This document shows, piece by piece, positions 23,298-49,026 of a stretch of 64,000 nucleotides of DNA. The translations under genes and the position numbers were made by a program. This DNA comes from a bacterium (GTDB lineage Bacteria > SZUA-182 > DTGQ01 > JBLIRR01). A model generated the notes under the pieces. The model was not told where the DNA came from. It did not search any database and worked only from the letters and a program-made list of their open reading frames with translations. Each line of letters opens with the position of its first letter. The stretch's first letter is position 1. The stretch is from assembly GCA_049472395.1 (NCBI GenBank), contig JBLIRR010000001.1, positions 197,940 to 261,939 on the forward strand, written 5' to 3'.

Positions 23298-24842
23298 ATG
23301 TCAATAATACGTAAAAATAATTTGTGCGTGTGTATCGTTTTTTTTACTCTGATGAGTGTGATTCTCTTTACCCCTTATAATATCACTCACGTACGTGCCT
23401 CAGAAGACCAGGAGCTCATTCAACTATTTTTTTTCTACTCAAGTGAATGTGAAGAATGCGACTATATAGAAGAAAATATTCTGGATGGATTGGAGAGTCA
23501 GTATCCCATTACCATAAAAGCGTATGATATTGTTGATCACTATGAATATCTTCTTAAAATGGAGAAGCTTTACGGGCACAGCGAAACTGAAATTCCTGCA
23601 ATATTTATCGGGAATAACGTCCTAAGCGGAAAACAGGAGATTATTGAAAACCTGTATACTCTTATCGAAGACATTGTGAGGTCCGGCTCACTGACAAACT
23701 TCCCGACTCCGCCATTTGATGAACCAAATAATAAAGATGCGGCCATCTCAGGCACCATCAATATTTATATGGCCTTTTTTACAAAACAGGGGTGTCAGAA
23801 ATGTTCCCGCGCCTATTATGATTTACAGTATCTCCAAAATAAATATCCAACCCTGGTAGTAAAAAAATTTAATATTGATACTACGAGCCAAGAAAACAAG
23901 CTTCTCAATGAAGCCATGGGAGAACTTTATTCTCTTCCTGAAAACAAAAGATTAGTCGCACCATCTGTGTTTATAGGCGATGATTATCTTGTGGGCAGTG
24001 ACGTAACGCTCAAAAACATGGAAACCCTTATCCATGCCTACGCTCAAAAATCCTCTCTTCCCCCATGGGAAAAGATAAAAGGGATGGAATCTGAGGCAAA
24101 AAAAAATATTATCACCCGGTTTAAAGGGCTCAATCTTCCCACTATTATTTTTGCAGGGCTCCTTGATGGGATTAATCCCTGTGCATTCGTGACGATCATC
24201 TTTTTTATCTCCTATCTGCAATATATCGGAAGACGGGGGGTTGAAATACTCCTTGTGGGAAGTGCATTTTCTCTTGCCGTATTTGTTACCTATTTATTAG
24301 TCGGTGTAGGGGTCTTATCCTTTGTCCGCTCGTTAAAATTTCTGCCGCTCCTATCTCGCATTATTTATATGCTTACCGCCATATTTGTCATTATTTTAGG
24401 GATCCTTAGTCTGAAGGACTATTTTATTTGCAGGCGCGGAGATATTGAAGATATGAAGCTTCAACTCCCTGATTTTTTAAAAAAAATGATACACAAAACA
24501 ATTCGTAAAAAAACGCGGATAAGAAGATATGTCATTGGTGCGTTGAGTGCAGGCTTTATTGTCTCTTTTTTAGAACTTGCCTGTACCGGCCAAGTGTATC
24601 TTCCTACCATTATCTTTGCATCACGCGTAGCGCATTTGCGCCTTCAAGGGCTCGCTTATCTTTTCCTTTATAACCTTATGTTTATACTTCCTCTAATTAT
24701 TGTCTTTATCACTGCATATATTGGTACTTCATCAGAGCAGCTTACTGAAATTCTGCAGCGTCATGTTGCGTCTGTAAAATTGGCAACCTCTCTTCTCTTT
24801 TTCTCTCTCGGCATCATTTTAATTCTTACCTTATTTCTTTGA
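23298..24842 (+). CDS. membrane protein with two N-terminal thioredoxin-like CxxC domains fused to a CcdA/DsbD-like transmembrane domain (thiol-disulfide transfer candidate)
   Basis: Signal/TM at the N-terminus. CEEC and CQKC motifs sit in Trx-like contexts. The C-terminal polytopic domain has Cys in TM helices (GINPCAF, LACTGQ) resembling CcdA. Confidence 0.4.
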   Translation: MSIIRKNNLCVCIVFFTLMSVILFTPYNITHVRASEDQELIQLFFFYSSECEECDYIEENILDGLESQYPITIKAYDIVDHYEYLLKMEKLYGHSETEIPAIFIGNNVLSGKQEIIENLYTLIEDIVRSGSLTNFPTPPFDEPNNKDAAISGTINIYMAFFTKQGCQKCSRAYYDLQYLQNKYPTLVVKKFNIDTTSQENKLLNEAMGELYSLPENKRLVAPSVFIGDDYLVGSDVTLKNMETLIHAYAQKSSLPPWEKIKGMESEAKKNIITRFKGLNLPTIIFAGLLDGINPCAFVTIIFFISYLQYIGRRGVEILLVGSAFSLAVFVTYLLVGVGVLSFVRSLKFLPLLSRIIYMLTAIFVIILGILSLKDYFICRRGDIEDMKLQLPDFLKKMIHKTIRKKTRIRRYVIGALSAGFIVSFLELACTGQVYLPTIIFASRVAHLRLQGLAYLFLYNLMFILPLIIVFITAYIGTSSEQLTEILQRHVASVKLATSLLFFSLGIILILTLFL

Positions 24843-24847
24843 TTTTT

Positions 24848-25246
24848 TTACGCAACTAATAAGCCTAATTTCTCGATTTCTCCAATAACTTTATCCTTGC
24901 TTATTGGCTTGGTTATATAGGCTTCACACCCTGATTGAAATGCCTGTTCCATATTCTTCTTGTCTTTTAGCACGGTGATCATAATAATCTTTACCAAAAG
25001 ATCCTCTTTTATACCTCTTTTTTTCTCGATTCTACGAATTTTCTGGAGTGCTCTTTGGCCATCTAGATTCGGCATCATTATATCAAGACAAATAAGATCA
25101 TAGGGATTGTCCCTCTCAAGGGACTTCTCAAACTCCAAGACTGCCTCTTGTCCATCAGAAGCGATGTAACATTCTCCATAAGGCTTTAGAATACTGCGAA
25201 GCAGTTTTTGACATAATAAATCATCATCCACTATTAATATATTCAT
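24848..25246 (-). CDS. single-domain response regulator (CheY-like receiver)
   Basis: ILIVDDD, LICLDIMMPNLDG and the KP motif of REC domains. No output domain. The ATG at 25244-25246 follows a GTG. Confidence 0.75.
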   Translation of the reverse strand: MNILIVDDDLLCQKLLRSILKPYGECYIASDGQEAVLEFEKSLERDNPYDLICLDIMMPNLDGQRALQKIRRIEKKRGIKEDLLVKIIMITVLKDKKNMEQAFQSGCEAYITKPISKDKVIGEIEKLGLLVA

Positions 25247-25280
25247 CACTTCCCTTTCTTCTTTTACTCTTATTTTAATC

Positions 25281-25688
25281 TTATTGGATGCCGGTAGCTA
25301 TAAGCCTTAATTTTTCAAGCTCTGTGAGTATCTTCTCTCTCGTTATCGGTTTAATGATATAGGTTTCACATCCGGCCTTAAATGCGCCGAGAATATTCTT
25401 TCCATCCTTAAGAGCCGTCACCATGATAATCTTAACTCCATCAAGCCCTCCTATACCTCTTTCAGACTCGATTTGCCTTATTCTCTTTAATGTTTCCTGC
25501 CCATCGAGATTTGGCATCATAATATCGAGACAGATAAGATTATAGGGACTTTCTTCATTAAGTGCTATTTCAAACGCAGAAAGGGCTTCCTCACCATTTA
25601 CTGCAATGTCACATTCTCCATAAGGGGACAAGATTTTCTGCAGAAGTTTTCTGCATAAAAAATCATCGTCAACCACTAATGTATTCAT
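25281..25688 (-). CDS. single-domain response regulator (CheY-like receiver), paralog of the upstream one
   Basis: Same REC motifs. The likely start is MNTLVVDDD at 25688 with a strong Shine-Dalgarno AAGGAGGGAG; the track ORF extends to a TTG at 25715. Confidence 0.75.
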   Translation of the reverse strand: MNTLVVDDDFLCRKLLQKILSPYGECDIAVNGEEALSAFEIALNEESPYNLICLDIMMPNLDGQETLKRIRQIESERGIGGLDGVKIIMVTALKDGKNILGAFKAGCETYIIKPITREKILTELEKLRLIATGIQ

Positions 25689-25840
25689 TAATATCTCCCT
25701 CCTTTCCCATGGCAATAGGTATATCTGTTGTTCACTTTATTTCGTCGTATATACTAAAATAAATATTACCTCGTATATCGGAATATAATTATAATTGCTT
25801 CAAATAACTCTATTCTTAAATTTTAGAATTGCCGGTATCC

Positions 25841-25870
25841 TTGACAAGAGACCAGTATATATGCTATTAT
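25841..25870 (+). promoter_or_regulatory. sigma-70-like promoter candidate for the FeS/HydS operon (TTGACA-18-TATTAT)
   Basis: TTGACA at 25841-25846 and TATTAT at 25865-25870, about 100 nt upstream of the 25971 start. Confidence 0.35.
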
Positions 25871-25970: not shown

Positions 25971-26495
25971 ATGAAAAAAGCACTATATATTGATGTGAGC
26001 AAATGTCTGGGCTGCAGAAGCTGTGTTTTTGCGTGTGCGGTTGAGCATTCAAGCTCTAAAAACAGAATTGGAGCTTTATCAGAAATCCCTAGACCGCGAT
26101 CAAGAGTTCATATAGCTTTTGTGGAAAAAATGGCTATACCCTTGCAATGTCGCCATTGCGAAGATGCACCTTGTGTTGCTATTTGTCCGACAAGGGCAAT
26201 AAAAAAACTTGGCCCTCAAGAACCGGTTATTATTGATAACAAAATGTGTATTGGCTGTAAATTTTGCATAGTATCATGTCCTTTTGGCGTCATTTCCCTT
26301 ACTGACGACGGCAAAGCTGCCATTAAATGTGATAGGTGCATAAGCCGTCAAAAGGAGGGGAGGCTCCCTGCGTGTGTTGAAGCATGTCCTACTCATGCCA
26401 TTAAGTTTTTGAGCATTGATGAAATAAATGCGGAAAAACGCAGGCAGGCGGCACAGAAAGAAGTGGCGGCCATTACGTGTGTAGAGGTTTCTTAG
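25971..26495 (+). CDS. 4x[4Fe-4S] cluster protein (HycB/HybA/FdhB-like electron-transfer subunit)
   Basis: Four Cys motifs (CLGCRSCVFAC, CRHCEDAPCVAICP, CIGCKFCIVSCP, CDRC...CVEACP). The start at 25971 follows GAGGTGAAGG; the track ORF begins upstream at 25887. Confidence 0.7.
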   Translation: MKKALYIDVSKCLGCRSCVFACAVEHSSSKNRIGALSEIPRPRSRVHIAFVEKMAIPLQCRHCEDAPCVAICPTRAIKKLGPQEPVIIDNKMCIGCKFCIVSCPFGVISLTDDGKAAIKCDRCISRQKEGRLPACVEACPTHAIKFLSIDEINAEKRRQAAQKEVAAITCVEVS

Positions 26496-26583
26496 ATCAA
26501 TTATTTGAAAGTCATGAATTACGACCCTCGGCCACAAAATTAAGGCTAGGGAGTAGTAATGCCTTCAGAGCGAGGAAACCACC

Positions 26584-26844
26584 ATGATTGAAGTTACAGT
26601 GTGCGTTGGCAGTTCATGCCATGTAAAAGGTTCTCGTGATTTGATTAAGTTGTTTAATAATCTTATTAGCGAATATAAACTTGAAGAGAAAGTGGCACTG
26701 AGGGGGTCCTTCTGTCTTGAACATTGCGCAGAGGGTTTTAATTGGAAAATCGGTGAAGAAATCATAAGCTGCAAGAATATCAAGGAGGCGGAAAAAATCT
26801 TTCGGGAAAAAATCATAGAACCTCTCATGGGAAAAGAAGAATGA
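26584..26844 (+). CDS. thioredoxin-like [2Fe-2S] ferredoxin (small hydrogenase-associated type)
   Basis: 86 aa with CxxxxSxC...C...C spacing (CVGSSCHVKG...CLEHC) as in NuoE/HndA-type 2Fe-2S folds. Confidence 0.55.
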   Translation: MIEVTVCVGSSCHVKGSRDLIKLFNNLISEYKLEEKVALRGSFCLEHCAEGFNWKIGEEIISCKNIKEAEKIFREKIIEPLMGKEE

Positions 26845-28511
26845 CCTTGCTCACTATCTCCCATCCTGACTGCAAAGATAAAGATTATTATAAGTGTTTA
26901 CGTTCGTGCCCTCTAAAAGCCATAAAAATTAGCAAGGGCACAATGGAAATAGTGGAAGAGCGTTGTATTGCTGAAGGACTCTGTATTAATATCTGCCCTC
27001 AAGGCGCCATCCATGCCATTGGTGAACTGCATAAGGTAAAAAAATATCTGGATTCCGGTATCCGAGTTATCGCTAGTTTGTCACCGACCACTTTACTCAC
27101 TTTTAGTGATGCTCAAAGGTTCGAGGATGCCCTTAAAACCCTCGGTTTTTCGGAAGTAGTATATATGCAGGATGCCGCGGCTTCACTGGTTTTGGAATAT
27201 GGTCAATTATTATCCAAGGTAAGAAAGCCCCTCATTTCCTCCCATTGTCCGGCTATTTGTGAGCTTGTGGAAAGATTTGTCCCAAATGCCTTGAATTATC
27301 TTGCGCCCATTATTGACCCTGCAGTTGCTCATGCTCGTATTATCAAAGCACAACAAGGAGAGGACAGCCGCGTTGTTTACATAGGGCCCTGTCTTTCTCA
27401 GAGAACCAGAGAAGGAGATGCCCTGGATGCCGTATTAACATTGAATGAAATGGATAACTGGTTTAAGGAAACTGATATTCAGATCCCCATTATGACCTCT
27501 CAGGATATACTACCAGCAGAGTCCTTTGCAGGACTTCTTTCTGTTTCCGGAGGTCTGTTGTCACTCTTGGAGCTTAAAGAGGCAGCAGCTGGAGGAAACA
27601 GTATTTGTATTTCAGGAATGGAAGAGTGTTTGAAATTTCTGAAAAATTTGCCTCCTCCTGAAATGGGCTTTGAATTTGCAGAGCTTATGGCGTGCCATGG
27701 CGGGTGTATCGGCGGCCCTTTTCTTCGAACGAAATTTGATATAGTGAGTAGGAAATTTTTATTATCTCGTAATAAGCCTTCTCGTATCCCCGCACCAGTA
27801 TCACAGGTGAACCTTACGAGAAAACCTCAAGCCAGGCCCTTTGTAGCCCCAAAGACTAATCCGGAAGAAATAGATTATGTTCTGCGCCACTATACGAGCC
27901 ACCTTGATTGCGGAATGTGTGGTTATGAAACGTGCTTTCAGAAGGCAAAAGCAGTATGCGAAGGAATGGCTGACGTTGAGATATGTATGCCAATGATTCG
28001 AACGCAAGGACAAGAGACGCTCTCAATTTTGGAGTATACACCTAACGGAGTCATCCTCATTGACACGGATACTCGGATACGCTTTGCCAATCCATCATTT
28101 TTAAAAATGTTTAAATGTGAACGAAAAGATATACTCGGTGAGCCAATAGCCAACTTCATCCACTCCCATTGTTTTGAAGAGGCTATAAACAATAATATAA
28201 GCTCTCTTTTTAAAAGAACAATTCCTAAACTGGGCATTAGCTACCGCGCGTGTATTTTCCCAATAAAAGGAGCCTCTCTTTACTGCGGGATCATAAACGA
28301 TATATCGGAAGAAGAAAATGCGAGGCGAGAATTCGACAAAGTCAAGGATGAGACCTTAAACAGGGCTCAAGAGGTTATTGGACGTCAAATGAAAACAGCA
28401 CAGGAGATTGCCGGGCTACTAGGGGAGACAACTGCTGAAACGAAAGTTTTACTTGTAAAACTAATGAACCTCTTTAATGAGGAGGAATCTCCAGGTGAAG
28501 CTCTTTTATGA
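26841..28511 (+). CDS. [FeFe]-hydrogenase-like sensory protein with PAS domain (HydS/HfsB-like, group C)
   Basis: N-terminal ferredoxin-like Cys motifs. H-cluster-like motifs SSHCPAICE (L1), IGPCLSQRTRE (L2) and ELMACHGGCIGGPF (L3). An extra CGMCGYETC...C cluster and a C-terminal PAS-like region follow. The start overlaps the previous stop (ATGA). Confidence 0.7.
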   Translation: MTLLTISHPDCKDKDYYKCLRSCPLKAIKISKGTMEIVEERCIAEGLCINICPQGAIHAIGELHKVKKYLDSGIRVIASLSPTTLLTFSDAQRFEDALKTLGFSEVVYMQDAAASLVLEYGQLLSKVRKPLISSHCPAICELVERFVPNALNYLAPIIDPAVAHARIIKAQQGEDSRVVYIGPCLSQRTREGDALDAVLTLNEMDNWFKETDIQIPIMTSQDILPAESFAGLLSVSGGLLSLLELKEAAAGGNSICISGMEECLKFLKNLPPPEMGFEFAELMACHGGCIGGPFLRTKFDIVSRKFLLSRNKPSRIPAPVSQVNLTRKPQARPFVAPKTNPEEIDYVLRHYTSHLDCGMCGYETCFQKAKAVCEGMADVEICMPMIRTQGQETLSILEYTPNGVILIDTDTRIRFANPSFLKMFKCERKDILGEPIANFIHSHCFEEAINNNISSLFKRTIPKLGISYRACIFPIKGASLYCGIINDISEEENARREFDKVKDETLNRAQEVIGRQMKTAQEIAGLLGETTAETKVLLVKLMNLFNEEESPGEALL

Positions 28512-29640
28512 GTGCGCCCATGGCCAAATACCTAAGTTACATGAAGAATTGTGTGGCGACAGTATAGCATTTTCTTTTCAGCCCGATAAAGTGATTATGG
28601 TTCTTTCCGATGGTCTAGGAAGCGGCGTTAAGGCTAATATTCTCGCAACACTGACGACGCGCATGCTTACCCATATGTTAGATAATGAATTGCCTTTAAA
28701 CGAGGTTGTAAAAACAGTGACTGAAACCCTGCCTGTGTGCAAAATACGTGGGCTTGCATATAGCACCTTTTCAGTTGCCCAGCTTTTCTCCAACGGAGAA
28801 GGCCGGTTAGTAGAGTTTGATAATCCATCAGTTTTTTATTTTAAAAACAAAAATCTTGAAAAATTGAGTTGGAAATCCACTACCATATCAGAAAAAAATA
28901 TTAAGGCATGCTCCCTAAAATTACAAGCCGGTGATTGGCTCATTTTCGTGTCTGATGGAGTAATAAGTGCGGGCATAGGCGGTCTTTATTCCTTAGGATG
29001 GGGGTGGGAGAAGGTTGCCCAATACCTGCATAATCATCTCGTCGATACGACATCAGCTCAGAAAATTGTAGATACTGTATTAGAAGCGGTAAGCAACCTC
29101 TATGTAGGTCCTCCTGGGGATGATGTCACCGTGGCCGTGGTTAAGGTGCGCTCTAAACGATACTTGACAATATTATTCGGCCCTCCGCTTAATTCTAAAG
29201 CTGATCCCATTGTGGTAGAAGAGCTGATGAAATCCCCCGGCTGCCGGGTAGTCTGTGGAGGCACTACCGCAAATATTGTATCCCGATTTTTAGGTAAGCC
29301 GCTGCACGTGGACCTTCAGACAATCACAGATGAAGTGCCGCCTCTGGGGCATATGGAAGGCCTCGATCTTGTGACCGAGGGCGTTTTGACCATGACTCAT
29401 CTTGTCTCAATGCTCAAAAATGGGGTCTCTGCAGATTCAAAGGAATTTTCAATAGATAGCTCAAGTACCTTGCTGAGGATGTTGACAGAGGCGGACAGCA
29501 TCAGATTGCTTGTGGGACAAGCAAAAAATCCAGCGCATCAAGATCCGAAACTCCCGGTAGAAATTAAAACAGAGCTTGCCAGGGAACTTCAGGATGCTTT
29601 AAAAAAAATGAATAAGGAATGTTCCATAGATTTCTTTTAA
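28477..29640 (+). CDS. PP2C/SpoIIE-family serine/threonine phosphatase
   Basis: CGDSIAF...VLSDGLGSGVKA and downstream DG...D motifs of PPM phosphatases. A GTG at 28495 preceded by GAGGAGG may be the true start. It overlaps the HydS-like stop. Confidence 0.7.
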   Translation: MRRNLQVKLFYECAHGQIPKLHEELCGDSIAFSFQPDKVIMVLSDGLGSGVKANILATLTTRMLTHMLDNELPLNEVVKTVTETLPVCKIRGLAYSTFSVAQLFSNGEGRLVEFDNPSVFYFKNKNLEKLSWKSTTISEKNIKACSLKLQAGDWLIFVSDGVISAGIGGLYSLGWGWEKVAQYLHNHLVDTTSAQKIVDTVLEAVSNLYVGPPGDDVTVAVVKVRSKRYLTILFGPPLNSKADPIVVEELMKSPGCRVVCGGTTANIVSRFLGKPLHVDLQTITDEVPPLGHMEGLDLVTEGVLTMTHLVSMLKNGVSADSKEFSIDSSSTLLRMLTEADSIRLLVGQAKNPAHQDPKLPVEIKTELARELQDALKKMNKECSIDFF

Positions 29641-29658
29641 TAGTAGAAGGGGAAATGA

Positions 29659-30177
29659 ATGAAAAAAAAGCCAGAGAAAACCAATAAAAAAAATTCGTTT
29701 ATTCAAAAACTTTGCGAGCACTACAAGTGGAAAAAAGGTATGTTAATCCCGATGATGCAGGATATTCAAGAAGAATTTGGGTATCTTCCTGTCAAGGACC
29801 TCAAGGAATTATCATCAACATTGGACATTCCATTAAGTCAGATATATTCTGTGGCAACATTTTACGCAATGTTTCGCTTGGCACCACCCGGGGAACATCA
29901 GATTACCCTGTGCATGGGAACGGTTTGTTTTTTAAAAGGCGCAGGCAAAGTAGCCGAAGCCATACAAAAGGAATTTTCTTTAGAAGCTGGCGGCACAAGT
30001 CCGGACCGAAAATTCACCTTTAAACTTGTAAACTGTGTAGGAGCCTGTGCACTGGCTCCTGTTATGATAGTTGACGGGGCTTATTATGATGCAGTGACGC
30101 CAGATTCTGCTATTTCCATACTGCATGATATTGCAGAGGGCAAGACCGTTGCCAGCATGACGGCAAGTGGAGCATAA
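29659..30177 (+). CDS. NuoE-like [2Fe-2S] subunit of an NAD(P)-linked flavin oxidoreductase (HydC/HndA-like)
   Basis: Thioredoxin-like 2Fe-2S pattern CMGTVC...C...C with NuoE-like length. Confidence 0.8.
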   Translation: MKKKPEKTNKKNSFIQKLCEHYKWKKGMLIPMMQDIQEEFGYLPVKDLKELSSTLDIPLSQIYSVATFYAMFRLAPPGEHQITLCMGTVCFLKGAGKVAEAIQKEFSLEAGGTSPDRKFTFKLVNCVGACALAPVMIVDGAYYDAVTPDSAISILHDIAEGKTVASMTASGA

Positions 30178-30258
30178 ATGAACACAATAATTTTATACAT
30201 TTTACTATCATTTACGCTACTGCATAAGTAGCATTAAATCCAAGAAAAGGGGAACGCA

Positions 30259-32127
30259 TTGACTACAGCAACCACAATATTTCAAAGTGCAAAAGAGCTT
30301 AATGCCTACCGGAATGCCCTTAAAGAAAAAAGAAGTGGGAAAGAACGTAGTATAAGAGTGTGCATCGGGACAGGCTGTCAGGCTAAAGGCTCTTTAGATG
30401 TTTTAAAAATGTTTCAAAGGGCTGTGCGGGAATCCGACAAATCCGATATTCGAATTGAGACCAAATTTACAGGCTGCCATGGCCTTTGTGAGCTCGGGCC
30501 TATTGTGATTATAGATCCAGGAGAGATCATCTATCTCAGGGTACAACCGCACGATGTGGCTGAAATTTTTCGAGAAACTGTTCTCTTGGGACATATGGTG
30601 GAACGGTTTCTTTATCAAAAGGAAGCTGAAGGGGCCAGATATAAAACCCCTCACGAGATACCCTTCTATAATCTTCAAAAAAGGATTGTATTGGCGCTCA
30701 ACGGAGTAATCGATCCTACCAGTATAGATGACTATATAGCGCATGATGGGTATGAGGCCCTTGCCCAGGTACTCACTACTTACAAATCGGAAGAGATCAT
30801 TGAGATGATAGAACGCTCTCAATTACGAGGCAGAGGTGGGGGAGGATTCCTTACGGGCCGTAAATGGCGTACCTGTGTTCAGACAGGCCGCAGTCCCCGT
30901 TATGTGATCTGTAATGGTGATGAGGGTGATCCAGGCGCATTCATGGACCGTTCAATCATGGAGGGGAATCCTCATGCTGTCTTAGAAGGTATGATTATTG
31001 GAGCATATGCTATTGGGGCTCAAGAGGGCTTTATATATGTCCGTCACGAGTATCCTCTTGCGGTAAAACATCTTCAAATGGCTATTGATCAAGCCAGAGA
31101 AATAGGACTTTTGGGTGAATCCATTTTAGGCACGGATTTTAACTTTGATGTCACAATAAACCGTGGTGGTGGTGCATTTATCTGCGGAGAATCCACGGCG
31201 TTAATGGCCTCTCTCGAAGGCCGAGTCGGAGAACCCCGTGCAAAATATGTCCATACGGTAGAATATGGGCTCTATGATTGTCCGACAACCCTTAACAATG
31301 TTGAAACATGGGCAACTATACCGGCGATTGTGCGCAATGGACCTGAGTGGTTTACCTCTATTGGCACAGAACGCAGTAAAGGCACAAAGGTATTCAGCCT
31401 AGTTGGAAAAGTCAATAATACAGGACTTGTCGAAGTACCTATGGGAATGACACTCAAAGAGATTATCTATGGAATAGGCGATGGTGTAAAAGGCGGACGC
31501 CCCTTTAAAGCCGTTCAAACAGGAGGTCCTTCCGGAGGGTGTCTTCCGGAATCATTAATAAATCTGCCGGTTGATTTTGACCGCCTTACCGAAGCAGGCT
31601 CCATGATGGGTTCAGGCGGCATGATTGTGATGGATGATTCGACCTGTATGGTTAATGTGGCAAAATATTTTTTAGATTTTCTTAAACAAGAATCCTGCGG
31701 GAAATGTACTCCTTGCCGTGAAGGCATCGCACAGATGCTTCATATCCTCACGCGTTTGACAAAAGGCAAAGGAGAGGAGGGTGATATTGAAAGGCTTGAG
31801 GCCCTGGGAGAACTTTTAGCGGATGCTTCTTTATGTGCATTGGGGAAAAGTGCGGCCAACCCGGTTCTTTCCACACTTCGCTACTTCCGTGAAGAATATG
31901 AAGAGCATATCCGCAAAAAGCACTGTCCTGCACTTGAGTGTCCGGGACTATTCCGTTATGAGATTGTTGCGGAACTGTGCAAAGGATGCGGGATATGCCT
32001 TAAAAAATGTCCGATGGATGCCATTACGGGGGAGAAGAAAAAAGCACATACAATAGATCAGGAAAAATGTACTCAATGCGGGGCCTGCTTCTCAAAATGC
32101 CCCTTTACAGCAATAAAAAAAATATAA
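30259..32127 (+). CDS. NuoF-like NAD(P)H-binding FMN/[4Fe-4S] subunit with an N-terminal 2Fe-2S domain and C-terminal 2x[4Fe-4S] (HydB/HndC-like)
   Basis: GRGGGGF, GDEGDPGAF and ESCGKCTPCREG motifs plus C-terminal ferredoxin motifs. TTG start after AAAGGGGA. Confidence 0.85.
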   Translation: MTTATTIFQSAKELNAYRNALKEKRSGKERSIRVCIGTGCQAKGSLDVLKMFQRAVRESDKSDIRIETKFTGCHGLCELGPIVIIDPGEIIYLRVQPHDVAEIFRETVLLGHMVERFLYQKEAEGARYKTPHEIPFYNLQKRIVLALNGVIDPTSIDDYIAHDGYEALAQVLTTYKSEEIIEMIERSQLRGRGGGGFLTGRKWRTCVQTGRSPRYVICNGDEGDPGAFMDRSIMEGNPHAVLEGMIIGAYAIGAQEGFIYVRHEYPLAVKHLQMAIDQAREIGLLGESILGTDFNFDVTINRGGGAFICGESTALMASLEGRVGEPRAKYVHTVEYGLYDCPTTLNNVETWATIPAIVRNGPEWFTSIGTERSKGTKVFSLVGKVNNTGLVEVPMGMTLKEIIYGIGDGVKGGRPFKAVQTGGPSGGCLPESLINLPVDFDRLTEAGSMMGSGGMIVMDDSTCMVNVAKYFLDFLKQESCGKCTPCREGIAQMLHILTRLTKGKGEEGDIERLEALGELLADASLCALGKSAANPVLSTLRYFREEYEEHIRKKHCPALECPGLFRYEIVAELCKGCGICLKKCPMDAITGEKKKAHTIDQEKCTQCGACFSKCPFTAIKKI

Positions 32128-32142
32128 TGAGATGGAGAGATT

Positions 32143-32943
32143 ATGCCGACGATTATTATTGATAACAAACCTTATGAGGCAAAAACAGGCGAAACAATAT
32201 TAGAGGTCGCCATACGGGAAGGGATTTGGATACCGACATTATGTTATCATCCATCCTTGAGGGGATATGCTGCCTGCCGCCTATGCCTGGTAGAAATTGA
32301 CCGGGGGAGCTGGCGGCAAATCGTCACATCCTGCAATTACCCTATACGCAAAGATATAAAAGCCTGGGTAAATTCTGAGCGCGCCCTTAAGGCTCGCAAG
32401 GGAGTCATGGAGTTGCTCCTGGCCCGCAGTCCTGACAGCCAAGAACTCAAGACACTCGCTGAGCGAATGGGAATATATAGCACCTCATATCCGAAGGTGA
32501 CCGAATCACAAAGGAATTGTATACTATGCGGTTTATGCACACGGGTCTGCGCTGAGGTCATAGGGCAGTCAGCTATCAGCCTCTCAGGCCGCGGAGTGGA
32601 AAGAGTTGTGTCGACCCCTTTTCAATTGGCATCTGATCAATGTATTGCCTGTGGAGCATGTGCGTCCATATGCCCCGTTGGTACCATACAAATCAGAATG
32701 CATGATGAAGAGATAGAGATTTCACCTTTTAAGTCAAAGGTGCCCATGCCCCGGTGTCGTGAATGCGGCAAACATCTTGCCAGTTCCAAGGTCGGTGAAA
32801 AAGTAATGGAATTGTTATCAGATAATTACCCTGATGAGACCCTGAAATCACTTAAAGAAATAATAATGTTATGTCCTGACTGCAGACGAAAAAGATCGGC
32901 CGAGGCTCTTCCTAAAAGCTATAGCGACCTTTTATGTTGTTAA
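32143..32943 (+). CDS. NuoG/HydA N-terminal-like FeS protein (2Fe-2S plus two 4Fe-4S) lacking any catalytic domain
   Basis: N-terminal [17 protein letters not shown]...CYHP..C..C 2Fe-2S ferredoxin, followed by [11 protein letters not shown] and [12 protein letters not shown]. It is only 266 aa and ends in a Cys-rich tail (CRECG...CPDC). Confidence 0.6.
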
Positions 32944-34299: not shown

Positions 34300-36063
34300 T
34301 TAAAACAGCCCCTTCACTTTACCAGTATTTACATCCACATCAATTCGTCGAAAGGCGGGGTCAGACGCCGTACCAGGCATTAATTTAATAGAGCCTGCCA
34401 AAGGTACTAAAAATCCAGCTCCCTTATACGTCAGGATATCACGAATCGGCAATGTCCATCCTTTCGGCCTTCCTTTGATATCAGGGTCATGACTTAAACT
34501 GAGGTGCGTTTTCACCATACAGATACCAAGCTTTGATCCCTCAGGGTCTTTGCTGATATTATCCAGTTTCTCAAGTGCTGCCGGTGCAAAGTGCACTCCA
34601 TCTGCCCCATACACCTCTTTTGCAATAAGCTCTATTCTCTCTTTCATCGGGGTAGTGTCTTCATAGAGGAATTTAAATTCATTTCCCGCATCACAGGCAT
34701 CAATTACCGCATCAGCAAATTCCAAAGCCCCATCTCCGCCTTTTAGCCAATGAGAAGACACTGCTGCTTTGGCACCTGCTCCCTCCGCAGCTTTTCTTAC
34801 AATACCTATCTCTGCGTCCGTATCAGTGTAAAAACTATTAATACATACAACCGGATTAATCCCTGCTTTCTTAACCGTCTCTATATGAGCAATGAGATTT
34901 TCGCACCCTTTCTCTACCAATGCGCAATTCTCACTCGTATATGCCGCGGCAAGAGGCGCTCCCGGCCTCACTGCAGGCCCGCCTCCGTGCATCTTTAACG
35001 CGCGAACCGTCGCGACAATTACTGCGCAATGAGGTTTAAGAGCGCTAAAACGACATTTAAGATTCCAAAATTTCTCAAAACCTATATCAGCCCCAAATCC
35101 GCTTTCTGTTACATGATAATCCGAAAGCTTCAATCCTACCTGATCCGCAATAATAGATGATTGTCCTATAGCAATATTTGCAAATGGCCCTGCATGTACC
35201 ATCACAGGCTGGCCCTCAATAGACTGAAGCAGATTCGGATTTAGGGCTTGCACCATCCATGCCGTCATTGCCCCGTCAACCTCAAGATCTTTGGTGGTTA
35301 TGGGATCACCCGATTTGCTGTAAGCCACAATAATTTTGCCCATTCTTTCTCTCATATCCTTAAGGCTTGTTGAGACAGAAAGGATAGCCATAATCTCAGA
35401 GCTCACCGTAATGGCAAATCCTGAATTCATCATAAATCCATCCATTTTCCCGCCTTGTCCAATGGTAATATCTCTCAGGGATTGCGCGCAAAAATCCATT
35501 ACCCATCTCATCTCGACATTTCTCGGGTCAATATTGAGCCGCTTCAGATTCCTCTTGGCAAGGGCGGCATCGTTATAATTAAATTCATGCTGAAGACGTG
35601 AGGTGAGAGCCACCATTGCAAGATTATGAGCATTTGTTATCTTATCTATATCTCCGGTAAGCCCCAAAGAAAATGGTGTAAGAGGGATACACTGGGCAAG
35701 GCCTCCCCCTGCAGCACTTCCTTTAATATTAAATGTCGGGCCCCCGGAAGGCTGGCGAATCGCTCCTGTGACATTTTTCCCCCTTTTTCCAAGCCCCTGC
35801 ACCAAGCCCATGGAGCTTGTGCTTTTCCCCTCCCCCAATGGGGTAGGAGTAATGGCCGTCACATCAATATATTTACCTTGTGGCCTGTCTTTCAGCCGAT
35901 CTAATACTTTGATAAAATCAATCTTTCCAAGATAATGACCCATCGGAATAAGCTCATCAGAAGTAAGCCCCAGTTCCTCTGCCAATTGGTTCACTGTCTT
36001 CATACTCTTTTCTGCATCTTCTGCAATTTCCCAATCTGCGTGTTTGGTTGGATCTAATGCCAT
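34300..36063 (-). CDS. fhs: formate--tetrahydrofolate ligase
   Basis: 587 aa with P-loop-like [13 protein letters not shown] and the overall FTHFS pattern. Confidence 0.9.
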
Positions 36064-36189
36064 TACTTTTTCCCTCCTTCTTTATTTATGTGTATCCACC
36101 TTAAGTTATTATCGAACCACAATTCCTTTTGATATCTTTGAAATGAGTGGTCCCACTATATCGATCACTCTTTTAAGAACAGGTATGTA

Positions 36190-36669
36190 TTATTTCCAGA
36201 TATAATTTAAAAGCTCTGCAAACTTATCATTCATATCGCGGAGCAAAGAACTCATGGTAAGGGCCACCTTTTTCATGATTTTATACCCGCAAAGGGGATT
36301 GTCCTCAACCAGTTTGTCAAACTTCTCCCGCTCTATCACTATTAATTTCGTTGGATTAATAACCTCAGCTGTTGCAGAATGGCTCCTTCTGTCAAAAAAA
36401 GAAAGCTCCCCAAAAAAATCTTCCTTTTCCAATAAGGCGAGGGTTTGTCGCTCTCCGTTTGAGAGAATCCGGCTGATTCTTACTTTGCCATTATAGATGA
36501 TAAAGAACTTATCCCCCTGCTCATGTTCTTTAAAGATTATTGTCCCCGCTTCATACTCTTTTAATTCTGAAATTGAGGCAATCTGAGATAATTCTTCATC
36601 AAAGAAATTATAAAAAAATGTTAATTGCCGCAATATATCTTTTTCCATTTTTTTGTTATTCTCCTTCAT
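36190..36669 (-). CDS. standalone cyclic-nucleotide-binding (cNMP/CAP-family) domain protein with no DNA-binding domain
   Basis: IIFKEHEQGDKFFIIYNGKVRI...FFGELSFF matches the CAP-type cNMP-binding fold. At 159 aa it has no HTH. It overlaps the fdhA stop by 14 nt. Confidence 0.65.
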   Translation of the reverse strand: MKENNKKMEKDILRQLTFFYNFFDEELSQIASISELKEYEAGTIIFKEHEQGDKFFIIYNGKVRISRILSNGERQTLALLEKEDFFGELSFFDRRSHSATAEVINPTKLIVIEREKFDKLVEDNPLCGYKIMKKVALTMSSLLRDMNDKFAELLNYIWK

Positions 36670-39322
36670 TAATTTTTTCTATATTTATAGCGCACACTTT
36701 ATATTCAGGGATCTTGGATACAGGATCTCGTGCGGAATTGGTTAAAAGATTTGCCGCTGCTTCATGGAAATGGAAGGGAATAAAAACCACCCCACGCGCA
36801 ACCCGAGGAGAAACTTTCGCTTTGAGCGTTATCTGTCCCCTGCGGGAGACTGCCTTCACCATCTGCCCATTTTGTATATCCAAAGAGGACGCATCATAAT
36901 CAGAAATCTCCATATAGGGCTCGCCACAGATTTCATCCAGTCCGGATTTACGCGTCATAGTTCCTGTATGGAAATGAAACAACATTCTCCCTGTGGTTAA
37001 AATAAAAGGATAGGATGCATCTCTTTCTTCTGCCGACGGTATATACTCAACAGGTATAATATTCTTTTTGCCCGCTGTATGGAGAATCGGCACTCCCGGA
37101 TCATTTTCACTTGTGCAGGGCCATTGCAGTCCGCCCTTCTCCAAGCGGTCATAACTTATGCCGGCATAAATCGGTGTCACTGAAGCGATTTCTTTCATAA
37201 TCTGGGAGGGGTGGGAATAGTCCATAGGATAGCCCATTTCAGTTGAAATATCACAGATTATCTGCCAATCCGGTTTTGCCTGGCCGGGGGAGGGAAGAGC
37301 CTTACGGACTAATTGGACGCGTCTTTCGGTATTGGTAAATGTACCATCCTTCTCAGCATAACTGGCAGCAGGCAATACAATATCTGCACGCTGGGCTGTT
37401 TCGGTTAAAAATATATCCTGCACCACAAAAAATTCCAATTTCTTGAGTATTTTCTCAAGATGCCCAATATCAGGATCTGAAAGCATGGGATTCTCTCCCA
37501 TAATAAAAAGGGCCTTGATCTCACCCCGGTCTATTGCCTCCATCATCTCCATAACCGTGAGCCCTGGTTTTGTTGAAAGAGTGCTTTTCCACGCATTTTG
37601 GAATTTTTGTGCCACTTCTATATCGCTCACCGCCTGATAACCCGGATATACATTCGGGAGGCAGCCCATATCGCAGGCTCCCTGAACATTATTTTGGCCA
37701 CGAAGCGGATTAACACCACTTCCCGGTTTTCCGAGATTCCCTGTTATTAAAGCAAGATCCGCCACGGCTTTCACATTATCCGTCCCTGTTATATGCTGTG
37801 TAATGCCCATTGTATAAAATATGGCAGCAGATTCTGCCTGAGCATACATTCGTGCTGCCTCACGTATCTGATTAGCCGGAACCCCTGTAGTGGATTCAAC
37901 ATAGTCTGGCGTATATTTTTTTAATGTTTCCTTAAGCTCCTTAAAACCCGTGGTGCGTTCCTTAATAAATTTTTTATCTTCCAAGCCTTCCTCGACAATC
38001 ACATGCATTATACCATTAAGCATCGCCACGTCTGTTCCGGGAATCTGACGAAGATAAATAGTTGCCCATCTGGCCAGATCTATTCTTCGAGGGTCGACTA
38101 TTATAAGCTTCGCGCCCTTTTTCCTTACGGCCTCCTTTATCTTAAGCCCGATTATCGGATGTGCCTCTGTCGTATTAGAACCAATAACAAGGATTACGTT
38201 CGCATCGACAATATCGGCAATGGAATTTGTCATTGCTCCGCTCCCCAATGTTGCGACCAGACCGGCCACTGTCGGAGCGTGTCAGAGCCGTGCACAATGA
38301 TCGACATTATTTGTGCCGATAACCGCCCTCATCCATTTCTGAAAAAGATAGTTTTCTTCATTGGTACATTTTGCCGAACTTAATCCTGCTATGGCATCTG
38401 CTCCATATTTATCCTTTATCTCGACGAGCCTTTCAGCGATCCTCATATACGCTTCATTCCACTCCATCGGGTCAAATCCCTTATAGGATTTACCAAGAGG
38501 AGTGGTTAGCCGCCTCTTGGAGGAAATAAACTCATACCCGAATCTCCCCTTACTGCAGAGATACCCTTCATTGACTGACTCCTCAGGGGAGGTAATCCGA
38601 ACAATCTCATCATCTTTTAACTGAAGTGCTAATTGGCACCCGCACCCACAATAGGGACACGTCGTTACAACTTCTTTTAATTGCCATGTTCTTCCCTTAT
38701 ATTTGGCAAGCTTCGAAGATAACGCACCCGTTGGGCACACGGCAACACATTGACCGCAAAATTCACAATCAAGAGGCTGATTAAACGCGGTTCCTATCCT
38801 TGTCGTAAAGCCTCTTTCTATAAAATCAATACCGCCTACTCCCTGGACCTCATCACATATACGAACGCATCGTCCGCATAAAATACATTTACCATGATCT
38901 CTCAGTATAAAAGGGTTAGTATCATCTACCGGATACTTATTCCTCTCTCCCTGAAATTTGTAGATATCAACCCTATATTCATAAGCGAGATCCTGAAGCT
39001 CGCATGATCCGCTCTGGTCACAGACAATAGACTCAAAAGAATGATCTGAGAGAATAAGTTCCAAGTTGGTCTTTCGAGCTGCCATTATTCGTTCGGATGT
39101 CGTATGGATTACCATATTTTCAGCTATCGGAGTAGCGCACGCCGGGACCAGCTTTGGAATTCTCTCCACTTCAACAAGACAAATTCTGCATGCTCCAAAA
39201 GGAGCAAGATGGCGATAATGACAGAGCGTTGGAATTCTAATGTTATTTTCCTGACATACCTCAAGAATCGTGGCGCCAAGTTCAGCATATACACGTTTCC
39301 CATCAATGTTTAATGTAATCAT
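36656..39322 (-). CDS. fdhA: formate dehydrogenase catalytic subunit (NuoG-like N-terminal FeS domains plus molybdopterin domain), a selenoprotein with an in-frame UGA at 38282-38284
   Basis: Track ORFs 38282..39322 and 36656..38269 are in the same frame and are separated only by TGA. The local sequence [30 protein letters not shown] is the canonical FDH selenocysteine motif. selB is present in the window. Confidence 0.85.
38230..38281 (-). other. SECIS-like stem-loop immediately 3' of the fdhA UGA codon
   Basis: mRNA CAC-GCUCCG-ACAGUGGCCGGUCUGGUCGCAACAUUGGGGA-CGGAGC. The 6-bp stem GCUCCG/CGGAGC starts 3 nt after UGA, and the apical region contains GGUCUG as in the E. coli fdhF SECIS. Confidence 0.45.
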
Positions 39323-41013
39323 TGCCTCTTTCTCTCGACTTTATTCTGTTCTGCCTGTTCGTTAATAGAATCCTCATATTCTTTTCTAAAATACCTTATG
39401 GTGGAAAGTACCGGATTGGGGGCTGTTTGACCAAGCCCACAGAGGGCTGTGTCCTTAATATGGGTTGAAAGCTGAAGAAGAGTATCAATATCAGATAATT
39501 TTCCCTCTCCGGCAATAATACGATTTAAAATCTCGAGCATTCTTTTTGTTCCTATTCTGCACGGAACACATTTTCCACATGATTCACTCTGTATAAAATC
39601 CAAAAAATAGCGTGCAATATCCACCATGCTCGTCTTATCATCCATGACAATCATCCCGCCAGATCCCATAATAGCTCCGATACTTACCAGAGAATCATAA
39701 TCAATTGGCACGTCAAGATGCTCGGCAGGCACACATCCTCCGGAGGGGCCACCAAGCTGAACGGCCTTAAAGGTTCGGCCTCGCGGAACGCCTCCTCCAA
39801 TATCATACACAACTTTTCGGATAGGAGTTCCTAATGCAACCTCCACCAAACCTGTATTCTTAATCTTTCCCGCAAGGGCAAATACTTTGGTCCCCCTATT
39901 GTTCTCTGTTCCTATACTCGCGTATCGCTTTGCCCCTTCCCTTATAATTATAGGCACATTGGCAAATGTCTCTACATTGTTGATATTCGTTGGCTTTCCC
40001 CATACTCCCTTGTGAGCGGGAAAGGGTGGACGAGGCCTTGGCATCCCTCGTTTACCCTCAATTGAGGCTATGAGTGCTGTTTCCTCTCCACACACAAATG
40101 CCCCGGCGCCTTCCTTGATAATTAAATCAAAATTAAAATCAGCCCCCAATATACGCTCCCCGAGTAATCCCCATTCCTTGAGTGTTGAGAGAGCACTCTT
40201 TAAATGTTTTATCGCGATCGGATACTCAGCTCTCACATATACATATCCATGCTCAGCACCAATGGCATAGGCTGCAATTAACATCCCCTCAATAACTGCA
40301 TAAGGATCACCCTCTAAAATGGCACGATCCATAAAGGCGCCGGGGTCTCCCTCATCTGCATTACAAATGATGTATTTAGGCCAATTATTTGATTGACGGC
40401 AAAATTGCCATTTAAAGCCGGTGGGGAATCCTCCCCCTCCCCTGCCCCTTAGCTCTGATGCTTTTATGATTTCAATGACTTGTTCCGGAGTATATTCACG
40501 AATTACCTTGGCAAGAGCGGAAAATCCATCTTCACGCAAATAATGTGTAATATCAGTGGGATTAATCCGGCCACAATTTTTAAGGACTAATTTTGTTTGA
40601 TGCTTATAAAACGGGATGTCCTGTAAATATGGATATTCTTTCTTTTCTTTACTGTCCTGATAGACTAAGCGGGATATAATTTTCCTGTTCAACACGGTCT
40701 CATCAATAATCGTGGGCACATTATCAGGTTGAACCTTCTGATAAAATATTTCCTTATCAAGCTCAATAGCTATTACCGGCGCCTGAGAACAGAAGCCAAA
40801 ACATCCTGTCTCTATAAGAGATACTTTTTCCGTAAGATTTCGGGATTGAAGCTCTTCTACAAACCTGTCACGTACTTCCTGCGCACCATATGCAAGGCAT
40901 CCTGTCATACAAATTCTGATAGTAATTTTATTGGGGTCGATCGCCTTCTTGAGCTCTGCAACCTTTTCATCAAACCCCTCTAATGAGTTTATTTTATTTT
41001 TCATACAGATCAC
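39319..41013 (-). CDS. NuoF-like NAD(P)H-binding FMN/[4Fe-4S] subunit of the NAD-dependent formate dehydrogenase
   Basis: GRGGGGFPTG, GDEGDPGAF and SESCGKCVPCRIG motifs with an N-terminal thioredoxin-like 2Fe-2S domain. It overlaps the fdhA start. Confidence 0.85.
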   Translation of the reverse strand: MICMKNKINSLEGFDEKVAELKKAIDPNKITIRICMTGCLAYGAQEVRDRFVEELQSRNLTEKVSLIETGCFGFCSQAPVIAIELDKEIFYQKVQPDNVPTIIDETVLNRKIISRLVYQDSKEKKEYPYLQDIPFYKHQTKLVLKNCGRINPTDITHYLREDGFSALAKVIREYTPEQVIEIIKASELRGRGGGGFPTGFKWQFCRQSNNWPKYIICNADEGDPGAFMDRAILEGDPYAVIEGMLIAAYAIGAEHGYVYVRAEYPIAIKHLKSALSTLKEWGLLGERILGADFNFDLIIKEGAGAFVCGEETALIASIEGKRGMPRPRPPFPAHKGVWGKPTNINNVETFANVPIIIREGAKRYASIGTENNRGTKVFALAGKIKNTGLVEVALGTPIRKVVYDIGGGVPRGRTFKAVQLGGPSGGCVPAEHLDVPIDYDSLVSIGAIMGSGGMIVMDDKTSMVDIARYFLDFIQSESCGKCVPCRIGTKRMLEILNRIIAGEGKLSDIDTLLQLSTHIKDTALCGLGQTAPNPVLSTIRYFRKEYEDSINEQAEQNKVERKRQ

Positions 41014-41025
41014 TTTTTATGTGGA

Positions 41026-41535
41026 TTAGGTTTTATATCTATCAATTATATTTCCCACCTTCTCAGGAGTAAGTTTTCCATAGTAGGTATCATTTATAAG
41101 GGCGACCGGAGCAAGGGCGCAGGTTCCGAGGCACGCTACCGTCTCAAATGCAAATTTCATGTCAGCCGTTGTTTCCCCATCTTTTATTCCTAGCAGCTCC
41201 TCAAAAGCATCGACAACTTCCTTCCCTCCTCTTACATGACATGCTGTCCCGCGACACATTCTTATTATATATTTACCCCTGGGCTCAGTATGAAATTGTG
41301 CATAAAAACTTATCACGCCGTATATTCTGCTTGAAGAAATATCCAGCTTCTCAGAAAGAAAAAACACAACCTCAGGCGGAAGGTATCCGAATATACCCTG
41401 GGCTTTTTGCAAAACCGGTATCAAATTCCCCTCTTTCCCCTTATACTCAGCAACCACGCTTTCCAATGCACTCCGCTTTCCAGATTCTTTTATGGGACTG
41501 TCCGCTCTCTTCACGCCCTTTTTCTCATCCCCCAT
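41026..41535 (-). CDS. NuoE-like [2Fe-2S] subunit
   Basis: CRGTAC...C...CLGTC thioredoxin-like ferredoxin pattern, 169 aa. Confidence 0.8.
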   Translation of the reverse strand: MGDEKKGVKRADSPIKESGKRSALESVVAEYKGKEGNLIPVLQKAQGIFGYLPPEVVFFLSEKLDISSSRIYGVISFYAQFHTEPRGKYIIRMCRGTACHVRGGKEVVDAFEELLGIKDGETTADMKFAFETVACLGTCALAPVALINDTYYGKLTPEKVGNIIDRYKT

Positions 41536-41550
41536 ACTTTGTTCTCCTTA

Positions 41551-45694: not shown

Positions 45695-45837
45695 TCACCA
45701 TTCTCCTTTGGCTTATCGTTCCCTTTACTCATTCGTTTCTTAAAAATCCGCTCCCATAATCATCTTGATTGTATAATAATTCAACTTTATAACCGGGGTT
45801 CTCATGTAAACGGATTTTTTAAGGCTCCTATCGTACT

Positions 45838-47190: not shown

Positions 47191-47240
47191 CTGTTTTTCT
47201 CCTCTACGTTCTTTATTTTATATTAATATCATACGTGTAT

Positions 47241-48182: not shown

Positions 48183-48212
48183 AATAGACTCCTTTTCTCC
48201 GGTTTACATTTT

Positions 48213-48992: not shown

Positions 48993-49026
48993 ATCTTCTC
49001 CTTTCTATCACATTTATAAAAATATA

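Follow-up and report, generated by a model that had tools for sequence, protein, structure and literature searches.

A putative H2-sensing regulator encoded with a Wor-type Bfu module beside Wood-Ljungdahl genes

Genes of the triad and its operon

The DNA analysed here, referred to as the window, is a stretch of 64,000 nucleotides from a bacterium of the GTDB lineage Bacteria; SZUA-182; DTGQ01; JBLIRR01 (GenBank assembly GCA_049472395.1, contig JBLIRR010000001.1, positions 197,940 to 261,939 of the forward strand). On its + strand lies a triad of overlapping genes for a small iron-sulphur protein, a homologue of sensory [FeFe]-hydrogenases and a phosphatase. The first gene (26584-26844) encodes an HfsA-like, thioredoxin-like [2Fe-2S] protein of 86 aa and is joined by an ATGA stop/start overlap to the second (26841-28511), the product of which is a HydS/HfsB-like homologue of group C [FeFe]-hydrogenases with 556 aa, recognised by Pfam matches, alignment to Clostridium pasteurianum CpI and a residue census, and 100% identical to NCBI MGA1867082.1. 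Group C enzymes are proposed sensors (PMC8163306, PMC10055695), and this protein is called the sensor below. The third gene encodes an HfsC-like phosphatase of the SpoIIE/PP2C type. Its reading frame can be opened at ATG 28477 (387 aa, 35 nt of overlap with the sensor gene) or at GTG 28495 (381 aa, 17 nt of overlap), and the latter (28495-29640) is the likelier start, since it follows a GAGGAGG ribosome-binding site and agrees with the 381-aa NCBI model and with the starts of homologues. The open reading frames (ORFs) lie exactly where the original prediction, made from the sequence alone, had placed three overlapping + strand genes. Its claims of a small 2Fe-2S protein, of H-cluster ligands, an extra C-terminal four-cysteine cluster and a PAS domain in the sensor, and of a PPM/SpoIIE phosphatase gene overlapping the sensor gene, were all borne out by the matches and alignments described below.

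The 86-aa protein matches 2Fe-2S_thioredx (PF01257) weakly (E 7e-4, below the gathering score), and its four cysteines (C7, C12, C44 and C48) are kept in homologues, which do score for PF01257. The phosphatase matches SpoIIE (E 4e-18) over aa 36-224 of the 387-aa frame, and its residues D28, D45, D160 and D215/D216 align with the acidic motifs GDS, SDG(M/L)G, SDG and DD of Bacillus subtilis SpoIIE structures. At least 7937 homologues were found at E<=1e-20, and 383-aa members from other phyla are about 50% identical to it. The remainder of the protein (aa 225-387; 29149-29637, + strand) is an alpha/beta domain of unknown function, kept throughout the family, with no Pfam or PDB sequence match. 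Its AlphaFold2 model has a pLDDT of 88.6, and a fold search with this model returned weak flavodoxin-like and methylglyoxal-synthase-like matches, none of them informative.

The triad is part of a run of seven closely spaced genes (approximately 25971-32943) in the order S subunit, 86-aa protein, HydS-like sensor, PP2C phosphatase, BfuC, BfuB and short BfuA. A promoter-like site upstream (25841-25870, + strand; TTGACA, 18 nt, TATTAT, with TG) was the best in the scan, with 11 of 12 matches; it is a candidate, identified by its fit to the consensus only. Terminator-like sites within the operon are no more numerous than expected from shuffled sequence. The first gene encodes a ferredoxin of the CooF/HycB/WorS type with four [4Fe-4S] clusters and 174 aa (Fer4_11, E 2e-22). 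Its mechanical ORF opens at TTG 25887, and ATG 25971 (25971-26495, + strand) was taken as the start on account of the preceding GAGGTGA ribosome-binding site and the 174-aa length of homologues. The best PDB sequence matches of S are HycB3 and HycB4 from HDCR (hydrogen-dependent CO2 reductase; 7qv7, 107 and 100 bits), followed by WorS (9mqx_E, 90 bits).

Judged by homology, the last three genes of the operon, all on the + strand, are a Wor-type Bfu core. BfuC (29659-30177) is a NuoE/HydC-like [2Fe-2S] protein of 172 aa (2Fe-2S_thioredx, E 2e-46). BfuB (30259-32127) is a NuoF/HydB-like protein of 622 aa, in which Pfam recognises an N-terminal [2Fe-2S] domain, the FMN/NADH site, NADH_4Fe-4S and a C-terminal 2x[4Fe-4S] domain; its best PDB match is WorB (9mqx_B, 802 bits), ahead of the HydB subunits at 741-752 bits; the HydB/NiFe-HydB subunits of bifurcating hydrogenases (HydB from A. 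woodii and from T. kivui, NiFe enzyme from A. mobile) together span 735-752 bits. The last gene (32143-32943) encodes a short, WorA-like type-2 BfuA of 266 aa, with one [2Fe-2S] cluster, two [4Fe-4S] clusters, a zinc-finger-like Cys4 motif and a conserved tail at the C-terminus; WorA is its best PDB match (9mqx_A, E 1e-37, aa 4-220). All 16 of its cysteines, C205, C208, C244 and C247 among them, are invariant across 120 homologues, in which R249, A253 and L256 of the tail are conserved too. As a type-2 BfuA, WorA has neither a His-ligated cluster nor an H/A5 domain; at its end it has a zinc finger together with an adaptor helix, the latter recruiting subunit S (PMC12318220); by analogy, the BfuA of the window may bind zinc and serve as such an adaptor. 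Electron bifurcation between NAD(H) and ferredoxin by the Bfu complex is predicted from subunit homology.

BfuA has no Pfam match to PF10588 or PF02906, and therefore lacks the His-ligated cluster and the H domain. Neither a catalytic [FeFe]-hydrogenase nor HydEFG was found among the annotated ORFs of at least 120 aa in the window, in agreement with the earlier statement that no catalytic [FeFe]-hydrogenase adjoins the sensor and that the nearby NuoG-like protein has no H domain. A gene for a catalytic third-substrate (L) subunit is likewise missing from the operon of the window and from those of the clade loci that extend past the operon ends (L001, L086, L087 and L002).

Domains and active site of the sensor

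The sensor, encoded on the + strand, begins with a degenerate F domain (26841-27050) and an H domain (27066-27719). These are followed by the Cx2Cx4Cx16C cluster (27903-27992), the PAS domain (28023-28310) and, at the C-terminus, a highly conserved helical region (28311-28508). Pfam assigns aa 76-293 to Fe_hyd_lg_C (PF02906, E 3.5e-33), aa 355-384 to the FeS family PF04060, and aa 395-490 to PAS_8, PAS_9 and PAS (E 4e-8 to 5e-7). In the alignment to CpI, C136, C184, C285 and C289 coincide with the ligands C300, C355, C499 and C503, and C357, C360, C365 and C382 have the exact spacing of the Cx2Cx4Cx16C motif defined for group C in PMC8163306. The protein belongs to a small clade, the members of which are 58-75% identical; the next relatives were about 36% identical in a word-based homologue search, and a later search with the PAS region gave intermediates at 38-40%. 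A residue census was made over 119 homologues, of which seven are members of this clade and 112 are others, and all eight of the above cysteines are invariant among them. No structure of a group C enzyme appeared among the PDB sequence-search matches.

The original prediction had ascribed to the H-cluster motifs the substitutions seen in sensory enzymes, and this held only in part. The position of Met353 is occupied by Gly, as is typical of group C, but that of Cys299 is occupied by His, and Met497 is retained. The histidine (His135) is present in all seven clade members and in none of the 112 others, which have Cys (70), Ala (32) or Ser (10) there. In the literature Ala, Cys, Pro and Ser are given for sensory enzymes at this position, and a search for a variant with His in place of Cys299 or Cys169 returned nothing relevant. 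Ser319 is replaced by Asp159 in 7/7 clade members, the proton-relay position of Glu279 is kept as Glu119, and Met497, kept in the clade, is Ser or Asn in most relatives. The position of Lys358 is Gln or Glu in the clade (Gln in the window protein) and is followed by an invariant Arg (Arg188), in place of which 18 other homologues with Glu at the Lys358 position have Lys. Judged from these alignments, the second sphere of His135, Asp159 and the retained Met497 is specific to the clade and is not the usual sensory set.

These residues bear on a reading in which the 556-aa group C protein is itself the catalytic, H2-reacting L module, and the seven genes encode a single H2:NAD+/ferredoxin bifurcating complex. 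The HycB/CooF-like S subunit would then connect the H-cluster with the short BfuA at the end that carries the zinc finger and adaptor, with the PAS domain and PP2C as a built-in regulator. Such a role, which is considered unlikely, would fit the clade's Met497 together with titratable residues at the positions of Cys299 (His135), Ser319 (Asp159) and Glu279 (Glu119), a combination that most sensory homologues do not keep, and would also fit the best structural relatives of S, since HycB3 and HycB4 are the carriers of [FeFe]-hydrogenase in HDCR (PMC12318220). On the other hand, the outer proton-path positions Glu282 and Arg286 vary even inside the clade according to the census, the distal F-cluster ligands seem to be lost in the window protein, and characterised group C and D enzymes have a low turnover (PMC8163306). 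In the unlikely event that a group C enzyme did act as a working H2-activating subunit, plugged through a HycB/CooF-like wire into a WorA-type BfuA, this would be an unprecedented bifurcation architecture; the complex might then share its wire with carbon monoxide dehydrogenase (CODH), so that H2 would drive CO2 reduction directly, with the complex's own PAS domain and phosphatase exerting control.

The F domain of the sensor has six of the eight expected cysteines, both of its CxxCxxCxxxCP motifs being incomplete. In the first motif the second cysteine is absent through an insertion, as it is also in P0002. The second motif reads CxxE45xxCxxxCP; the position of Glu45 is Asp in P0003-P0006, and Cys in P0007 and in 108 of the 112 non-clade homologues. 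One or both of the F-domain clusters may therefore use a non-Cys ligand or be lost. This partial degeneration, together with the replacement of Lys358, would also agree with a vestigial H domain that holds at most a [4Fe-4S] subcluster, in which case the triad would respond to the redox state of the cell (ferredoxin/NADH, or the condition of the Bfu complex) instead of to H2, by way of its iron-sulphur clusters and the small [2Fe-2S] protein. That interpretation seems still less probable than a catalytic role. It is in line with the lack of HydEFG in the window, although this absence says little, since the window covers 64 kb of a 357-kb contig. It does not lead one to expect that the H-cluster motifs and all four ligands would be invariant in a clade of 58-75% overall identity, where L1 (SSHCP), L2 (GPCL..R), L3 (LMACxGGCIxGPF) and the pocket segments SPT and VSGGL are all kept. 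The loss of Lys358 is moreover accompanied by the basic Arg188, comparable to the Lys of the 18 other homologues that carry Glu.

The helix that follows the PAS domain (V512 to L541 invariant) is the most conserved stretch of the family, over a range of 32-100% identity, and may be read as the output interface of the sensor. Its invariance, together with about 50% identity of the PP2C across phyla, fits a conserved sensor-effector interface.

Clade loci and sister operons

The gene order S, small protein, HydS, PP2C, BfuC, BfuB and short BfuA was found at 8/8 clade loci, as far as their contigs extend, and S lies directly 5' of the small protein and HydS at all of those with contigs reaching that far. 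The flanks of these loci are unrelated to each other, and one other clade locus also adjoins Wood-Ljungdahl genes. A metagenome scan with the clade-specific SSHCP... pattern yielded two short contigs, each of which added a clade locus of the same order.

More distant relatives (25-36% identity) were surveyed at about 80 diverse loci listed by a scan of genome contigs with generic back-translated patterns. Most of the HydS and PP2C pairs among them adjoin BfuCBA with a full-length HydA, or a monomeric hydrogenase. The BfuA homologue beside HydS and PP2C outside the clade has 562-778 aa, which is long enough to contain an H domain, and a short BfuA (264-266 aa) combined with an S subunit was restricted to the clade among these loci. 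The nearest outgroup has the order NuoE-NuoF-HydA (653 aa)-85 aa-HydS-SpoIIE-Rex. The short BfuA family as a whole is very large, with 5447 matches.

A second type of operon, found at loci L089-L093, begins with CooC, CooS, a CooF-like S, an 85/96-aa protein, a PAS-only protein (167 aa), PP2C (383 aa), BfuC, BfuB and BfuA (256-273 aa), and continues after BfuA with acetyl-CoA synthase (ACS), the corrinoid iron-sulphur protein (CFeSP), RACo, CooC, AcsD and MeTr. One of these loci, L093 (5846-21152), belongs to a Thermoguttaceae metagenome-assembled genome (MAG; GCA_052744515.1). In the operons of L089-L093 the trio, with the CooF-like subunit and a complete BfuCBA core, lies between cooS and acsB. 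From this arrangement it seems that the supply of electrons to CODH/ACS may be regulated, and possibly bifurcating, in Planctomycetota as well as in other uncultured phyla. The Bfu and S proteins of the window are orthologous to those of these CODH/ACS-embedded operons, which carry the small-protein/PAS/PP2C trio. BfuC is 61-65% identical to its counterparts in the CooS-type operons, BfuB 63-66% (51% at a Firmicute-type locus), BfuA 57-61% (31%) and PP2C 50-52% (42%). For the 86-aa protein, identity is 47-55% to the 85-96-aa proteins that fill its slot there and 48% to the counterpart at a HydABC-type locus, with the cysteines kept. On sequence comparison, every window gene compared is closer to the CooS-type operons than to the Firmicute-type HydABC loci.

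The same holds for the PAS region of the sensor, which scores 162-171 bits against the PAS-only proteins and 66-111 bits against Firmicute-type HydS. HydS fills the slot of the PAS-only gene of CooS-type operons. The distribution has a complementary pattern, in that operons with CooS beside S have a sensor without an H domain, and clade operons without CooS or another catalytic subunit have one with it, as would be expected if the H domain were the catalytic module. However, HydS stands in the PAS-gene slot and not in the slot 5' of S where an L subunit would lie, and the PAS-only proteins are orthologues of its PAS domain. A Candidatus Moduliflexus MAG (L061, 9681-15981) has the small protein, a PAS-only sensor (177 aa) and PP2C directly 5' of a canonical HydABC, with a HydA of 583 aa (motifs TSCCP, MPC and MACPGGC), followed by a sigma-54-type response regulator. 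Since a PAS-only sensor is paired here with a genuine HydABC, the form of the sensor does not depend on whether a catalytic site is needed; sensor form and enzyme type (HydABC, CODH-Bfu or monomeric hydrogenase) vary independently, which fits a regulator and not a catalytic subunit.

Among the full-length relatives recovered with the PAS region in a profile-free search of 1.8 billion representatives, H domains appear to be decaying. The Cys355 ligand is replaced by Glu in P0372, L3 is altered in P0369 and P0370, and L1 of P0368 reads SSRCP; P0366, with ASHCP, keeps all ligands. Many 167-aa PAS-only relatives were found alongside such proteins (P0366, P0368, P0369, P0370 and P0372), with L094 and L095 among the related loci. 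Complete, decaying and PAS-only relatives resemble successive stages in a natural decay of the sensor's input domain. Decay of this kind in sister lineages is expected of a dispensable sensor input and counts against a catalytic module. It also lends some support to a vestigial H domain, as related full-length proteins (P0372, P0369 and P0370) have lost ligands or motifs and, when judged by the PAS domain, the close relatives are PAS-only proteins, which must work without an H domain.

Downstream of the operon, on the - strand, lies a Wood-Ljungdahl gene cluster (34300-49785, annotated ORFs) with genes for formate-tetrahydrofolate ligase (Fhs), a 159-aa cyclic-nucleotide-binding protein, FdhA/NuoF/NuoE, ACS (41551-43758), CooS, CFeSP gamma and delta, the MeTr methyltransferase and a CooC-like ATPase. 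The CooS/AcsA-type catalytic subunit of Ni-CODH (43751-45694, TIGR01702, E 9e-199) is 58-59% identical (746-773 bits) to the CooS directly 5' of the S homologue at L089, L091 and L093. It lies 11 kb from the operon, of which it is not part, and its homology makes it a candidate third-substrate partner of the S-Bfu module.

The same cluster encodes a formate dehydrogenase, the alpha subunit of which (36656-39322, - strand) has a fused NuoG-like N-terminus. The in-frame TGA in the motif HCARL-U-HAPTVAGL marks FdhA as a selenocysteine enzyme. It is accompanied by its own NuoF-like (39319-41013, 564 aa) and NuoE-like (41026-41535) subunits, both on the - strand. Given these subunits, and a NuoF without the C-terminal 2x[4Fe-4S] domain, the enzyme is probably a non-bifurcating, NAD-linked one, separate from the Bfu operon. 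A role of the operon's NuoE/NuoF and 266-aa proteins as HylABC partners of the formate dehydrogenase was considered and rejected, because FdhA already comes with a NuoE/NuoF pair and carries a NuoG-like part fused at its N-terminus, and because WorA and the BfuA of CODH operons are by far the nearer relatives of the 266-aa protein. Elsewhere in the window, a selenocysteine-specific elongation factor SelB is encoded at 4631-6568 (+ strand, TIGR00475, E 4e-108), which fits the selenocysteine-containing FdhA.

Other features of the window include a full-length 6S RNA (1243-1422, + strand; Rfam RF00013, 74 bits) just 5' of the RNase Y gene. Two tandem CheY-like single-domain receivers (24848-25249 and 25281-25715, - strand) are divergent from the promoter region of the operon; they were set aside as probably no part of the system, as other clade loci are without them. 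Between alaS and these receivers, a 514-aa protein (23298-24842, + strand) combines a DsbD-like transmembrane region with glutaredoxin/thioredoxin-like N-terminal repeats.

Proposed function and relation to known systems

The original prediction had assigned the triad to the Hfs/HydS type of architecture, and the domain content, motifs and synteny agree with the literature on HfsA/HfsB/HfsC and on HydS with a phosphatase. It had left the regulated target as unknown. No substrate of the PP2C was found, but the NuoE/NuoF/NuoG-like proteins and the upstream 4Fe-4S protein encoded in the same operon, a WorABC-S/Codh-type Bfu module, provide a concrete candidate. On balance, the triad is probably an H2-sensing regulator of the HfsABC/group C3 type, and an integral accessory of a Bfu complex of the CODH type that belongs to the Wood-Ljungdahl pathway. 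The complex itself is most likely a Wor/Codh-type 'plug', judging from its relatives, with an S subunit that docks CODH.

According to this proposal, the 556-aa protein would assemble an H-cluster, at which H2 would bind and react. The resulting redox change would pass to the C-terminal [4Fe-4S] cluster of the Cx2Cx4Cx16C motif and from there to the PAS domain and the conserved C-terminal helix, which would control the PP2C phosphatase, the product of the translationally coupled gene; the electron partner of the sensor would be the 86-aa [2Fe-2S] protein. By setting the phosphorylation of a protein, the phosphatase would adjust how much of the co-transcribed Bfu complex is present or how active it is. 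The latter would exchange electrons between NADH, ferredoxin and, as its presumed partner, the CooS of the neighbouring Wood-Ljungdahl cluster.

Several observations weigh against this proposal. A sensory role is still hypothetical in the literature for every group C enzyme, and the H2 sensing proposed here rests on homology to these putative sensors. A maturase search that covered the 64-kb window gave no HydEFG. The F domain is degenerate (6/8 Cys, Glu45), and Lys358 is changed to Gln. Furthermore, no clade operon encodes an L subunit, whereas the sister operons have CooS beside S, and this leaves room for the H-domain protein as the L module. Neither the operon nor the window contains a kinase, a STAS protein or a transcription factor as a possible substrate of the PP2C, and the REC-only genes upstream are not conserved at other clade loci.

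In its domain order (F, H, Cx2Cx4Cx16C, PAS), its four H-cluster cysteines and the change of Met353 to Gly, the sensor resembles TmHydS of Thermotoga maritima and the other group C (M2f) proteins (PMC8163306, PMC10055695), which likewise do not keep the canonical proton-relay Cys299. It is about 30-37% identical to sampled group C proteins, TmHydS itself being compared by description. The position of Met497 is Ser in TmHydS and Met in the window protein, in which Ser319 is changed to Asp and Lys358 to Gln followed by Arg; the F-domain cysteine motifs of the window protein are incomplete, and its His in place of Cys299 lies outside the published list. Consecutive genes for a small Fe-S protein, a PAS-hydrogenase and a Ser phosphatase are also present in HfsABCD of Thermoanaerobacterium and HydS-HydA2 of Ruminococcus albus, where they are thought to regulate an enzyme of hydrogen metabolism (PMC11837493), and deletion of hfsB alters fermentation (PMC11837493). 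The partner in those systems is a monomeric ferredoxin hydrogenase (HfsD/HydA2), whereas that in the window is a Bfu complex without a hydrogenase domain; Hfs was compared by description. The link to a Ser/Thr phosphatase defines group C3 of HydDB, termed 'phosphatase-linked' (PMC5037454).

A C3 gene named 'bfuT' was described in Bfu clusters of Hydrogenedentota (PMC11406978). There, as in the window, the group C3 gene adjoins bfuC, bfuB and bfuA, an arrangement seen in many phyla in the present survey, but BfuA of those clusters is a group A3 hydrogenase, and that of the window is short and without an H domain. WorABCSL of Acetomicrobium mobile (PDB 9MQX) provides the best PDB matches of BfuA and BfuB and a near-best match of S, and its BfuA is likewise without a His-ligated cluster and possesses the Cys4 zinc-finger motif as well as the C-terminal tail. 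A homologous CodhABCSF complex has been predicted (PMC12318220). The window operon differs from both in having no tungsten or CODH L subunit, and the published Codh-Bfu class was reported from Firmicutes only, with a gene order different from that of the window. The phosphatase shares a homologous catalytic domain and all acidic metal-binding motifs with partner-switching phosphatases of the SpoIIE/RsbU type, but has no STAS substrate or RsbW-like kinase nearby and carries the distinctive C-terminal alpha/beta domain.

The triad is therefore already known in kind, from HydDB C3, the Hfs operon, 'BfuT' and TmHydS, as are type-2 Bfu complexes and the predicted CodhABCSF. The searchable Bfu literature has no mention of the small-protein/PAS/PP2C trio inside CODH/ACS-Bfu operons, and a literature search for PAS or phosphatase genes inside CODH/ACS-NuoF clusters gave nothing relevant. 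A full HydS on a Bfu complex without a hydrogenase domain, a series from HydS to PAS-only proteins and the His/Asp second-sphere pair were also absent from the searchable literature. No substrate or output of the PP2C is described in the group C literature covered, and none was found at the locus.

The small-FeS/PAS/PP2C trio appears to travel with Bfu complexes whatever their third substrate, be it HydABC, a Bfu embedded in a CODH/ACS operon or the Bfu of the window without a catalytic subunit. Its likely target thereby shifts from hydrogenase genes to the bifurcating NADH/ferredoxin module, and the locus would link H2 sensing to the Wood-Ljungdahl pathway. Complete HydS, degenerate HydS and PAS-only proteins offer a natural series for studying how a signal enters the PAS-phosphatase pair, and the His135/Asp159 pair at proton-relay positions is a natural variant for H-cluster spectroscopy. 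The locus as a whole provides a specific and testable proposal as to what may be controlled by a sensory hydrogenase.

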